Shown here piece by piece: positions 26,653 to 35,600 of a stretch of 64,000 bases of DNA (position 1 is the stretch's first letter; each line of letters opens with the position of its first letter). This DNA is from Chrysomallon squamiferum (Eukaryota > Animalia > Mollusca). The stretch lies in NCBI GenBank assembly GCA_012295275.1, contig CM022667.1, forward strand, positions 16,182,001 through 16,246,000. Direction: 5' to 3'. Made by a program: the position numbers and the translations under genes. The notes under the pieces were generated by a model. The model ran no database searches and was not told the origin of the DNA. It worked only from the letters and a program-made list of their open reading frames with translations.

Positions 26653-29600
26653 ATGAAAACAATTAGGAATTTATTTTTTGTTCTTTTGGATAGTATTTAA
26701 CTGTGCATTTATTGCTGGTAAGTAAATAATAAAAAATAAAAAATAAATGACGGTAATATTTTGAGACATTATTAGACAGTATGATAATGATTATTGTAAT
26801 TAACGTTTACCTGTTTTGTTTTGCTCAAATTACCGTTAAACAAATACTGGATACTCGCAAGTCATCACAAGGAATTGACTACATTTAATCAATATTTTTA
26901 TTAATCAGTATTAATTATGTAATGACAGCACTTTCCATAACTAGCGCTCACGTTGTTGTGGACAATATCTATAATAAAGAACATATAATCACGTTTATAT
27001 GCTACTGAATCATAATGTGAATGTTTGTATAACTAATATTCTTTGTCAAATCTTGACCATGATCATAATGATAATAATAATAATAATAATAATAATAATA
27101 ATAATAATAATAATAATAATAATAATAATTATTATTATTATTATTATTATTATTATTATCATAATTATTATACTTATTATTATTATTGTTCTTGCTGTTG
27201 TTGTTGTAGTCGTCGTTGTCGTCGTCGTTGTCATCATCATCATCTTTATTATTATTATTTATTTTTTTTTTTTTTTTTTCTCAGATTCTCTCAACTGTTC
27301 TGAACCAGCACCTGTTGCCAATGCCTACAGAATCTGGGACGGCGGAGCAGCCGGAAGTTACGTCAGATACACATGTATATTTAGCTATGTTCACGTTTCG
27401 GGCAATTTGTCGATGATCTGCGATTCGTCCACTGGACAGTATTTAGGACAAACCCCTTCTTGTCAGCGTAAGTACAATATGCTTCTACGTGGTTGTTGCC
27501 TAAACTTTTTTTTTTCAATGACCAATATGTTCCTGTTCGTAGTATTTGATTTTTGTTCTCATAAGAAAAGATAAGAAAAAGAAGAGTGAGTGAAATGACA
27601 GACATATAAATATACAGTTAAAGACATAAACAAATAATAAACCTGTTAAGAAGAAAGAAGAAGAAAAAGCAAAGCAAAGAAAAACGTATTAGCAAACAGC
27701 AATGTTATCATACGTAGTTTTTAGTTGGCTAACCTGCTGTTAGTTATTTAAACTTAAACGTTGGATAATCGTATCACCAATTCGTACGTACTGTAAATGC
27801 AGTGGATATCAATATCATGTTTCTAATTTCCTTTCCTGGACTCAATATTCCTTAATCAACTACATATGAAACATTTGATTATTCACCAAGGTATTCAAGA
27901 TTTGAAATCTGAGATTCACTGGGTCCTACTACAGGCACACCACCGACTTTCCACGATCGGATAATAAAGCTACAGTTATATAATAAAAATAAATACGTAT
28001 AAAATAAAAAAATAAAATTTCGTGTAACAGTAAAACACACTGTAACATATTAGTGCGTACGTTACTAACAGTTCGACTAATAATAATAAGAAGTAAAATG
28101 GAAATAGAAATTAATAATTTGTTTATCTACTTGTTTTATCAAGATGAAAAATTGTGAAGAGCTGAGTTTGAGTTCTAAGTTTTTTCAGTATTCACGAAAG
28201 CTGAGATAAACATTAATTTCACTATAAATGTGTTTGAATACTGTCAGTAATACACTTTGTGAGACACTAAAATTACGATGGATATGCTTTCTAGTTGTGT
28301 AATAAAATTAAAATTAATAAAAACAATGTCAGTTAAACAGAAAACAGTGAATCATGTGAATCTATTTACGTGACTAAAAAAACTAAAAATATTATGAGAT
28401 ACAATGCGTATAATGTTAAATTTCCGATATTTCTTACTTTGAAGAATCTATTTGTAAAAGATTACTGGTTATAAACCAGCGCTAATTGTTTATAATTATA
28501 TTATAATATTAATTATAACCAAAGGAAAAATAATTAAGGTTTGCTAATAAAGTTTATGTAAATCTCAAGATCTTTATGTTTATTATAAAAATCATATTTT
28601 TCGTAAAAATTCAGTGCTAAAGAATTACTTTTATTTTATGGAAGTTAATATTGTCATAAAAACTTTATTTTTTAAAATAGGTTTTTCATTACACAGAGGT
28701 GATAGTTCTCTAGCAATCCCTTAATTTCACATGAACAAGAAAACAAAGCAAACACTAACAATAAAAACTCCACAAAACATCGATATTCTCTTTCTGATGA
28801 TTATATAGTTTCTGCTTTGACTTGGAGGTGAAAAGTATTTTCGTGCAATTTTGTGAAGTAACCCTCTCGTCTATACTAATGTGCATGTAATACATAGATA
28901 CATACATCCATGCACACATATATATTTATTTTTTCTGGTAAATGTTAACTACAGAGGGAGTAAAAAGATTGATAATTCTCTCTGAGAAACCTGCCAGTGA
29001 AAAAAGAAAGTCTGATTCTGGGAATTTGTGTGAAAAGGGTACTGTAACTCCAGTCAGATGATCTGTGAAACATTCAGTATGAAACTTTCGGGTAACATTT
29101 AGAGTGGTCTGTGCTATCTGTATCTATGTTCAAGGAGTTTGAAGACAAATACAGAAATAACAAGGCACAGTTTGAAGACAAATATAGAAATAACAGAGGA
29201 AAATGTTAATTTTATTGTAAAAAAATCTAATTTTCCGGATAATTTGTTGCAGAAAGTTTGGTAAAATATGAATCTCAATTTTTTTATAAAGATCTTGTTA
29301 CATTTCTAGAAATTTCATTGCACTAACTGAAAATCATGAAAGCTTGTATTCCGTTAGAAAAAAGTAAAATAAAATAAACAAATAAATAGAATATGTATAC
29401 TTTTGTCACATATATGTGTATGGCAGCATTATAACTCTAGAAAAAGTATGTGTGTGTATAATAATGTCAAAATAACAGTCTTAAGGTTTAGCATGATTAT
29501 TCTTTTGGTATTTTATGAAAATGGAGCAGAATTAACTTGTATTACACACACAAACACACACACATAAAAACACACACACATACACAGATCTTGTTTTAAA

Positions 29601-32600: not shown

Positions 32601-35600
32601 CTGACACATTTTCCATGCGACCAAGTTGTTTCTGTTTTTCAGCTAAAGTTAATCGGTTAAACAAACACTCATTCTTCGCATTGAAAATTCTCAACGCGAT
32701 TAAGAAATGCAGACTTTTTCATTGTATATTATTAAAGCAACGTATACCAAAAATATACAGACACGGGTTTCGGTGTTTGAGTGTGTATCTATCTGTTTGC
32801 GTGTGTTAGTATGTTTTAGTGGTGTGTCAGAGTGTGTGTGTATGTGTGAGAGAGTGTGTAGTATATGTGTGTATGTAAGTTTGTCTGGTCATTGCAAAAA
32901 ATGGTAACAGTAATACATATAAACATACAGATAAAAGAATGCATACTCGCAAATATACACACAAACGCATATACAGACGGACAGATATGTTTATTTGTCG
33001 TTGGTGAAATATAAACGAGTGTTTTACATACATGTATTTAGTACTTCTGCTGCACATTTTCTGAAAACAACAACACACACACACACATAGACATGCACGC
33101 ACACAGAGACATACACACACATACATATATATATGTATATATATATATATATATATATATATATATAGAGAGAGAGAGAGAGAGAGAGAGAGAGAGAGAG
33201 AGAGAGAGAGAGAGAGAGAGTTTCTTTTCGCATTATCCATTAAACGCTGATCTTACAAATCGGCTGTATCTTCTTGTCAGAAATCGCGAATCTTTATTAT
33301 TATTATTTATTTTTTTTTTTTTGCGTAAACTATTAATTTGATTTGACATCAAAATGTTACATACAATATGTGCGAAATTGTTATAAATATTGTTCCTTTA
33401 TTATACAGCTTTTAATTTTCACAAACCATTCGACATAAAACAGTAGTACAGTTTTTAAAATCTCTCTCTCTCTCTCTCTCTCTCTCTCTCTCTCTCTCTC
33501 TCTCTCTCTCTCTCTCTCTCTCTCTCTCTCTCTCTGTCTCTTTAAATCTTAAAATTTTTAAAAAAAATTTTTTTATGAGTTCATGTTTATTAATATTTCT
33601 CTCCAATAACCCAATTCATTTGATATTTTAGTTGACTGTAATACACCGGCAGATGTGATCGGAGCAGTTAGATTTTACTCTATGACAACAGACAACGCCG
33701 TCGCCGAATACAACTGTAACAGCGATTACGAACCATACAAAAATAAAAGGAAACGGTATTGTTCTAAATACTCCGGACGCTGGCTGAGCTACCCGCTAGT
33801 TTGTTTAAGTAAATAATAACAATATGTTTTTGTTAATATTGCCTGTTACTTTCACCTTTCTTCTGTCTCTGAGCTCTGACTGCAAACATCTCTCTCTCTC
33901 TCTCTCTCTCTCTCTCTCTCTCTCTCTCTCTCTCTCTCTCTCTCTCTATTTATCCGACAACAAATAAAACTAATTTATTGTCAACCAATTTGTTAAAGAT
34001 TTATTAAAGATATTTTGTTCCCTGCTTAATTATAGTTATTCGTTTTTTAATTGCTTATTCATTTATTAATTGTTGTTATTATTATTATTATTATTATTAT
34101 TATTATTATTATTATTATTATTATTATTATCTGTCTTCTTTTTCTTCTTCTTCTTCTTCTTATTCTTCTAGTTTATACTGTTATAATTATTATTATTATT
34201 ATGTTTTCTTTGCATTTATTCTTCATGTTTACTCTGCGAAACAGTTTAAATTTGTAACTTATACTTCATTCATATTTGTACAGCTAAACTCGTTCAGAAT
34301 TCAGAATTCTCTACAAATCAGAGCTCGACACTCACCATAAAGAGAAAAACTATTAACATATCGTATGGATCAGAAAAAGCAGTTGATGGAACCTCTTCGT
34401 ACTCCAGCACTGTGAATGAGTCCACACCTAGCTGGACGATGTATTTCGTCAGCTCAGTATATGAGATTTATCGCGTAGAGGTGGATTTGCCGTCAATATG
34501 TAAGCATCTTGTGTTAGTAAGATATGCTGATATTTGTTGCAATAAGTCAGCAAAGCAATATATTTTGTTTTATTTTCACTTTGAGAGCGTGAGTCCATAT
34601 TGCAGAAAATGTTATTAAGAAGGACAGATTAAGGGACGGATAAATGTTTTGAAAAATGAGTTCAGAATGGATACGTGAATGTTTGTGTGTTTGTTGTCTA
34701 TGTGTGTTTATACGAGAATATTGATACATTTTAGTTTTATTTTTAAAACTTTTTTTTAGTTTTAGATTTTATCAAATAAAGTCTACAATTCATCGCCATA
34801 CAATCAACAACTCTTTCTATATTTCTCTTAAAAATCGTTTTTTTAATACTTTTTTTTTTTTCTAAATTTCTCTTTTAAATTAGATTTTAATGAATCCAGT
34901 GTGAACATCTCAATAGATGTTTTAAACAGCTTAGACTCTTTCAAACGATTTCACTGCAAACACGATGGTCCACTGATTCCGCCTGTGTTTAAAGCCAACT
35001 GCTCTACATCACAGTCGGAGGTAGCATATGGAGACGCTTTAGAAATAACAGCCACGTACAAAGAAAGTGGTCCGCTGAAAATAAGGGATGTGCAAATACT
35101 TGGTCGAAAACAAGGATGTGAGTCTGTTTGTTTGTTTGTATCTGTCTATCTTTATTTATTTATTTATTTATTTATTTATTTATTTATTTATTTATTTGTT
35201 TGTTTATTTGTATCTGAAAGTTTCGTTTATATTGTTTTATATTTTGGATGTAATTTTCGGCTGATCCTTTAATTCTTCTTCAAGTTATTATTATTATTAT
35301 TATTATTATTATTATTGTTGTTGTTGTTGTCTATAAAAGTAATTGAAGGAGTGGTATTGTAGTAGTTGTAGAAGTAGCAGTAATTGTAGTAGTAGCAGTA
35401 GCAATACTAAGGGGGTTAGTGACAGTAGCACACATAATGGAGGCAGTAGAAGAAGCGGCAATGATATTATAATAGTAGTTGTAGTAATAGTAAAAATAGT
35501 TACAATTTTCTTATCAACATCAGTAGTACTACCACTACCACACCAACATTAGCTTTGAAGTGGTAGCATTGGCAAGTCTAGTGGGTTTTCTTAATGTTGT

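Follow-up and report, generated by a model that had tools for sequence, protein, structure and literature searches.

A gene that lies in another gene's intron may work together with its host or may simply be carried by it, and this is the question raised by a 64,000-nt stretch of the Chrysomallon squamiferum genome (contig CM022667.1, positions 16,182,001 to 16,246,000; hereafter the window, with positions counted from its first letter). Four tandem genes, G1 to G4, were modelled exon by exon on the plus strand of the window, G1 being cut by the window start, and the coordinates bear out the proposal of an earlier sequence-only reading that G3 has a macin gene lying antisense between its Sushi1 and Sushi2 exons (Table 1). 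Our preferred explanation, to which we give a probability of about three in four, is an ordinary nested gene: a macin in the predicted intron 2 of G3 (numbered by coding exons) that was gained by one paralog, is regulated independently as a passenger and encodes a predicted antibacterial peptide.

The macin gene and its transcripts

The ten cysteines of the predicted protein (positions 33, 40, 55, 59, 61, 69, 76, 85, 87 and 99) follow a hydrophobic N-terminus, which was read off the sequence and not taken from a dedicated signal-peptide predictor. Positions 33–88 matched the Pfam family Macin (PF14865) with 42.5 bits against a gathering threshold of 27 (E-value 9.6e-11), and a phmmer search of PDB sequences returned hydramacin-1 (2K35, E 2.4e-16) and theromacin (2LN8, E 2.4e-6). 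Judged by these comparisons, identity as a macin is far beyond chance, and the intact ten-cysteine open reading frame (ORF) that had been described on the opposite strand holds up. A word-based search found seven homologs among nine candidates, the top ones at 56% identity (Potamilus, Tigriopus), and an exhaustive search found 119 clusters with E up to 0.001. Names are carried by seven of the ten clusters that were looked up, including Sinohyriopsis theromacin and Mytilus macin/mytimacin-1, and the best-matching named macins come from one bivalve, one copepod and gastropods. Bivalve clusters showed 52–58% identity to the window macin, and the sequence is new in that its best named relatives are only 56–58% identical.

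The spacing of all ten cysteines is common to 39 of 128 fetched proteins, mytimacin-1 among them, and the eight-cysteine core alone was present in 38 more. This core is defined in the available part of PMC5116183 as eight cysteines in macin spacing, including the C1–C7 pair, and the reference cysteine array given there assigns the window macin to the theromacin type. All eight hydramacin cysteines align with the window protein, in agreement with the pattern match, and the extra C5 and C10 cysteines are present as Cys61 and Cys99, as in mytimacin-1 and Potamilus, and would form a fifth disulfide pair, C61–C99. Mytimacin-1 of Mytilus galloprovincialis (CCC15015.1) shares both the ten-cysteine pattern and the C-terminal end. 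This protein and the other ten-cysteine macins (Sinohyriopsis theromacin ACQ90304.1, leech theromacin 2LN8 and Potamilus KAK3612040.1) have a signal peptide and one CS-alpha-beta-type domain, as is predicted for the window protein, and the extra cysteine pair is placed behind the helix and close to the C-terminus. Hydramacin-1 is the top PDB match by sequence and also for the low-confidence fold model described below; it is an eight-cysteine macin without the fifth pair and the C-terminal extension.

For three candidate cleavage sites the mature peptide has a net charge of +3.7 to +4.7 and an isoelectric point of 8.6–8.8, and it contains five tryptophans. The macin fold is of the CS-alpha-beta type with an additional helix at the N-terminus. 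A low-confidence fold model (predicted local distance difference test score, pLDDT, 68.8) of the window protein contains helices followed by a beta hairpin, and its top Foldseek match was 2K35 (rank 1, probability 0.95, template modelling score 0.41). The accessible text of PMC6780910 presents macins as cationic, secreted peptides by which bacteria are aggregated and afterwards permeabilised in a salt-sensitive manner, and a leech macin is said there to promote nerve repair as well. By analogy with the family, cleavage of the signal peptide would release a cationic peptide of ~75 residues, with a charge of about +4 to +5 and, like theromacin, with five disulfides, which would aggregate and permeabilise bacteria.

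Part of the interval 27284–30830 is contained in nine sequencing runs from three studies. On the macin side contigs were mapped for four (X6, X7, X8 and X9) of the five small-share runs; X8 and X9 are RNA on record, and X6 and X7, which are labelled 'DNA?', were read as RNA-like from their pattern of cover only. The macin exon was covered by contigs in all four mapped runs, and in X8 and X9 cover was confined to this exon (6 and 3 of 30 bins, respectively) while the flanking intron was silent. The macin gene is transcribed. A 715-nt contig of X6 lies at 30034–30747, and contigs of X8 and X9 lie at 30254–30747 and 30502–30745; their ends at 30747, 30747 and 30745 coincide with the predicted acceptor, which precedes the ATG by 19 nt. 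Because the contigs of three runs stop there, which we count as a weak hint of splicing, the gene probably has a 5′ non-coding exon. In X7, deep contigs cover 30325–30672 with shallow cover outside, and depth drops from at least 182 to ~21 below 30325. AATAAA motifs are present at 30392 and 30348 on the minus strand, and the main 3′ end probably lies near 30325, with a longer form extending to about 30034. For the putative first exon the donor at 31444 scores 7.3 (training median 9.2) versus 0.4 for an alternative at 31346, and a TATA-like heptamer lies at 31507–31501, ~60 nt upstream of that donor. We therefore propose, from contig ends and motifs together, a two-exon gene that would be transcribed from its own promoter near 31.5 kb, spliced from 31444 to 30745 and polyadenylated near 30325.

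The X7 contigs differ from the window macin at 10 coding positions, 6 of them synonymous and none at a cysteine, and these differences may stem from allelic variation or from a further copy of the macin beyond the window. A joint of 29891 to 30248 in X6 was dropped as non-canonical (GT..AC) at a depth of 2.2.

The host gene and its predicted intron

The Sushi1 exon of G3 ends with GTAAGT and TTTTAG precedes the Sushi2 exon, both in phase 1, and the intron between them is the longest of 43 modelled introns (median 566). Simple repeat makes up 752 nt of it, with several long microsatellites. Both the transcribed part of the macin (30034–30747) and its putative first exon (~31444–31480) fall inside this intron. 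The lengths of about 6.2, 0.7 and 1.4 kb stated earlier for the Sushi1–Sushi2 introns of G3, G2 and G4 agree with the measured values in Table 1. Across the window, Sushi1 and Sushi2 exons number exactly three each and form three ordered pairs; the G3 Sushi1–Sushi2 interval has no Sushi exon left over and nothing that convinces as a signal exon. Since the Sushi pairs are complete and ordered and no convincing candidate for a new first exon is present from the macin to Sushi2, the flanking G3 exons appear to be halves of one gene, and 27468–33631 is likely an intron of G3. Candidates for an alternative start at 28638, 29448 and 32707 (hydrophobic ATG-to-GT stretches) had poor donors or were not signal-peptide-like. 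An Rfam search of 26000–35000 gave no match.

An artificial nesting would arise if mis-assembly had put a macin-bearing contig between two G3 exons. The long microsatellites of the interval would favour such an error, no single mapped contig spans the interval, and a low-depth X7 contig leaves the window sequence at 27524. However, four DNA runs contain 0.49–0.82 of the sampled words of 27284–30830, overlapping X7 contigs link 29696–30321 and others cover 30325–30672. No exon is missing, out of order or left over, and we consider mis-assembly very unlikely. The X7 contig that departs at 27524 continues into 118 unrelated letters that have no good match in the window, apart from one hit with 3 mismatches, and this divergence is possibly an insertion allele in the intron.

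The beginning of the host gene is broken in the window, a point that the sequence-only reading had passed over. Compared with the X1 and X2 haplotype, the segment 26593–26661 carries two extra upstream ATGs (26593 and 26601) and a frameshift; a stop ends exon 1 after 15 codons, and none of its four ATGs opens the long frame. These observations would fit a G3 that is dead or split in this haplotype as a null allele, with the macin effectively intergenic here. X1 and X2, which are DNA runs from two studies, each provide one contig across exon 1 that has one base fewer at 26660, lacks the upstream ATGs and differs at 10 and 8 other letters, respectively, over ~0.9–1 kb (the mapping also took X5, with 2 of 30 bins, and X7, and the exon was uncovered in both). 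In this haplotype a 21-residue hydrophobic leader opens a G3 ORF of 973 aa, compared with 1244 aa for G2 and 1002 aa for G4. Because the frame is open in X1 and X2, G3 is intact in the species, and the window copy is either a null allele or an assembly error. Moreover, the 11 exons that follow in the window all lack stops and have canonical splice sites; with the open frame in X1 and X2, this makes the frameshift at most a polymorphism of recent date or an error of assembly, and the nesting older than it, and a dead host is improbable as the explanation of the arrangement.

G2, G3 and G4 share twelve coding exons and the same architecture, namely signal, Sushi1, Sushi2 and then a common remainder. 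In G3 the remainder comprises, in order, an F5/8-type-C-like module, a Sushi-like domain, a second F5/8-like module, two Kringles, a small cysteine domain and a Ser/Thr stalk that is closed by a C-terminal hydrophobic segment. The Kringles are above the Pfam cut-off (E 6.8e-16 and 1.6e-22), and the F5/8-type-C similarity is weak and below the cut-offs. In the four paralogs the protein continues for only about 11–19 residues beyond the hydrophobic segment, and the C-terminal 101 aa of G3 gave no Pfam family and no recognised signalling domain. G3 and its paralogs are predicted, from sequence, to be single-pass surface glycoproteins, for which signalling through a partner protein is possible; the earlier designation of G3 as a receptor or sensor finds no support in such a short tail. 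Two stretches of the G3 intron that follows Sushi2 (within 33889–34291) are copied at 41790–42086, before the last exon of G3 (88.5% over 227 nt and 92.6% over 68 nt), and they include the acceptor of the next exon, so that a second acceptor near 42080 is possible.

Probable origin of the macin gene and its relation to the host

Three paralogs have the homologous intron within the window, and the macin is present in one of them; no second macin was found in the 64 kb by tblastn or by a profile hidden Markov model of 51 sequences. Six macin genes are counted for Biomphalaria in the portion of PMC5440852 available. One gain in G3 would be the simplest history, because it needs one event instead of two losses. 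Since the macin gene probably has a 5′ intron, duplication at the DNA level is favoured over retroposition and is the likely route of the gain. A decayed direct copy of the 5′ exon and donor region of the macin (31490–31272), with its donor lost, lies 3.3 kb away in the same intron. In this copy 148 of 201 aligned nt are identical and none of 200 shuffles reached its score; its core was the best among 844 tiles of the window (75 versus at most 60 elsewhere), although the longer alignment was beaten by 2 of 286 AT-rich background tiles, which overlap near 10.8 kb. No decayed second macin coding exon was detected (score 30 versus a shuffle mean of 33.8). The copy suggests a local tandem duplication after arrival of the macin, with the second copy lost. 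A comparison of the G3 intron with the rest of the window found no common transposon copy (E 1e-3, low complexity masked). Of the inverted repeats, which number 308, the longest 25 are pairs of microsatellites.

The arrangement itself is of a known kind. Opposite-strand nested genes of Drosophila and C. elegans are likewise short, intron-poor genes within a long intron of a multi-exon host; what differs here is that the inner gene encodes an antimicrobial peptide and that its host is one of several tandem genes. According to the accessible part of PMC3814207, nested structures involve nearly 10% of the genes of Drosophila and are opposite-strand in 71% of cases, and nested pairs there correlate in expression no differently from random pairs and share GO (gene ontology) terms less often than neighbours do. 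For C. elegans, the consulted sections of PMC12274878 count 567 opposite nested pairs, which are on average less co-expressed than neighbours, and they also describe a nested gene that can induce its host as a short host transcript. Nesting mostly reflects short, young duplicates inserted into long introns, with diverging expression, as stated in the available portion of PMC5174743. This published record favours an independent passenger over a coupled unit, a dead host or a mis-assembly.

A coupled unit was the proposal of the sequence-only reading, in which sensor and effector are co-regulated or interfere with each other. The promoter or enhancer of the macin and G3 would then interact, by co-induction, a short G3 transcript started within intron 2 or mutual exclusion, and G3 would be a lectin-like surface sensor of those microbes against which the macin acts. 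The weak F5/8-type-C-like modules, Sushi and Kringle domains and transmembrane segment of G3, in a diverged tandem array, would suit such a role, and in Biomphalaria, loci with clustered genes for single-pass transmembrane proteins are candidates for pathogen recognition (PMC10875847, in part). Among these, PTC1 and PTC2 likewise comprise tandem and diverged members, which are predicted to be single-pass and have domains of lectin-like or adhesion type; however, the domains named in the accessible text of that paper are CTL, FN3, Ig and TMEM154 rather than Sushi, F5/8-like and Kringle, and the likeness is one of analogy only. The short host transcript of C. elegans would offer a precedent for induction of G3. 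Against a coupled unit, the tail of G3 has the brevity described above and no recognised signalling domain, G2 and G4 keep the same architecture without a macin, and no kappaB-like site was found in 30700–33631 by two simple patterns. Furthermore, a transcript begun within intron 2 would not encode the signal peptide, its first Met lying inside Sushi2. Since published nested pairs are at or below the co-expression of neighbours and share fewer GO terms, as far as the cited portions of PMC3814207 and PMC12274878 go, the sensor-effector unit is left without support, and we regard it as unlikely.

For an independently regulated macin, G3 pre-mRNA would extend across the macin, which is on the opposite strand, and 27468–33631 would be spliced out, while the opposite orientation would keep the splice and poly(A) signals of the macin off the G3 strand. 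Such nestings may persist because the signals of the inner gene are hidden in this way. Any interaction between G3 and the macin would be incidental transcriptional interference, resolved by differing expression patterns.

Several points weigh against this explanation. The splice of 27467 to 33632 was not observed in RNA contigs, where the mapping covered the Sushi1 side and the Sushi2 exon lay outside. The 5′ exon of the macin is putative, and its acceptor scores 2.4 versus a median of 12.3 in a small matrix trained on the window. The fold model is of low confidence and matched hydramacin only at E 0.019. No insertion or transposon footprint was recognised at the macin, and the direction of change cannot be proved, with paralogs 39–46% identical, a tree supported at 49% and the homologous intron of G1 outside the window. 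The earlier idea of a paralog-specific insertion stands as far as presence in one of three comparable introns is concerned, and its order of events, after duplication of the array, is not provable. No contig of X6, X8 or X9 lies on G3 Sushi1, and X7 has one low-depth unspliced piece there; this lack of cover is no evidence either way, and contig depth cannot rank expression of G3 against that of the macin.

Neighbouring paralogs and significance of the locus

Table 1. Coordinates of the macin gene, of G3 and of the homologous introns in the window
Feature	Position	Strand	Remarks
G3 coding exon 1 (signal peptide)	26653..26717	plus	frameshifted in the window; in frame in X1 and X2
G3 exon 2, Sushi1	27285..27467	plus	67%/65% identical to G2/G4 Sushi1; Pfam Sushi E 0.0016, just under cut-off
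G3 predicted intron 2	27468..33631	plus	6164 nt, GT..AG, phase 1; splice inferred from paralog exon structure
Decayed direct copy of macin 5′ exon/donor region	27966..28187	minus	source 31490-31272
Macin main exon	30325..30745	minus	predicted acceptor AG 30747-30746; from contig ends and motifs
Macin coding sequence	30726 (ATG) to 30421 (TAA)	minus	101 aa, 10 Cys, single coding exon; predicted ~26-aa signal peptide
Putative non-coding macin exon 1	31444..31480	minus	predicted donor after 31444; 5′ end approximate
G3 exon 3, Sushi2	33632..33808	plus	48% identical to G2 Sushi2; Pfam Sushi E 0.0018, just under cut-off
G3 remainder, nine exons	34284..42878	plus	stop-free, GT-AG phase-1 introns
G2 Sushi1–Sushi2 intron	13896..14589	plus	694 nt, without macin
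G4 Sushi1–Sushi2 intron	47533..48974	plus	1442 nt, largely interspersed repeat copy, without macin

Throughout the array the F5/8-type-C-like modules span two exons with a Sushi-like exon between modules, and all modelled internal exons are stop-free and bounded by phase-1 GT-AG introns. The four-taxon tree and the identities among paralogs are those given above. The host C-terminus resembles unnamed clusters that are assigned to Mollusca in general, and the host family looks molluscan; neither this nor the bivalve, copepod and gastropod macins point to the 'related cephalopods' in which a synteny check had been suggested. Searches for homologs of single G3 exons among longer proteins, which were weak searches, gave no match. 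G1 (752–9620) has an extra 5′ two-exon F5/8-like module and no Sushi1 or Sushi2 in the window, and its start is upstream of the window.

Three copies of an interspersed element of ~0.6–0.85 kb, 67–82% alike, lie in introns of G2, G3 and G4 (20870–21721, 37150–37747 and 47771–48589), and one copy accounts for much of the longer Sushi1–Sushi2 intron of G4. This element resembles a Tigger/pogo-type non-autonomous element. Intron 4 of G4 (49972–53696, 3725 nt) contains broken ORFs that by eye resemble debris of a long terminal repeat retrotransposon, with a CCHC-type stretch and reverse-transcriptase-like fragments, and exon 4 of G4 is 117 nt long, shorter than its counterparts in G2 and G3 (183 and 216). 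Patches of 88–90% nucleotide identity between paralogs occur at the start of Sushi1 (27281–27382/47346–47447) and at the end of Kringle 2 with its donor (20290–20392/57001–57103), which in paralogs ~45% identical in protein suggests local gene conversion. The end of the Kringle 2 exon and its donor are followed by decayed tandem self-repeats in G2 (20285–20696) and G3 (39104–39562), at 68% over 468 nt between G2 and G3 and 80% over 124 nt within G2, and traces are visible by eye in G4 (57001–57230). Between G1 and G2, 12045–12351 forms an imperfect palindrome of ~300 nt that is 78% self-complementary.

The macin peptide is new in a known family, of theromacin/mytimacin type, and its nesting is a known and common arrangement, although our literature search, with subscription papers mostly outside it, found no paper that describes a macin nested in this way or a host of this architecture. 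A far-reaching scenario, which we hold to be decidedly improbable, is that one paralog of a diversified surface-lectin array of molluscs captured an antibacterial effector gene as a regulatory switch, so that macin transcription induces or silences G3 in the same cells, and G3 nulls like that of the window segregate while the macin is kept; if true, recognition would be uncoupled from killing. The locus would gain much in significance if G3 were a microbial sensor coupled to the macin peptide, for which no support was found here. In practical terms, the locus provides a new transcribed ten-cysteine macin that is open to synthesis and assay, in a location where gene predictors readily overlook or merge genes, and the frameshift in G3 exon 1 would break annotation of the host. 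Finally, one paralog with a nested gene beside two without offers a comparison within a single array for the effect of nesting on host expression.

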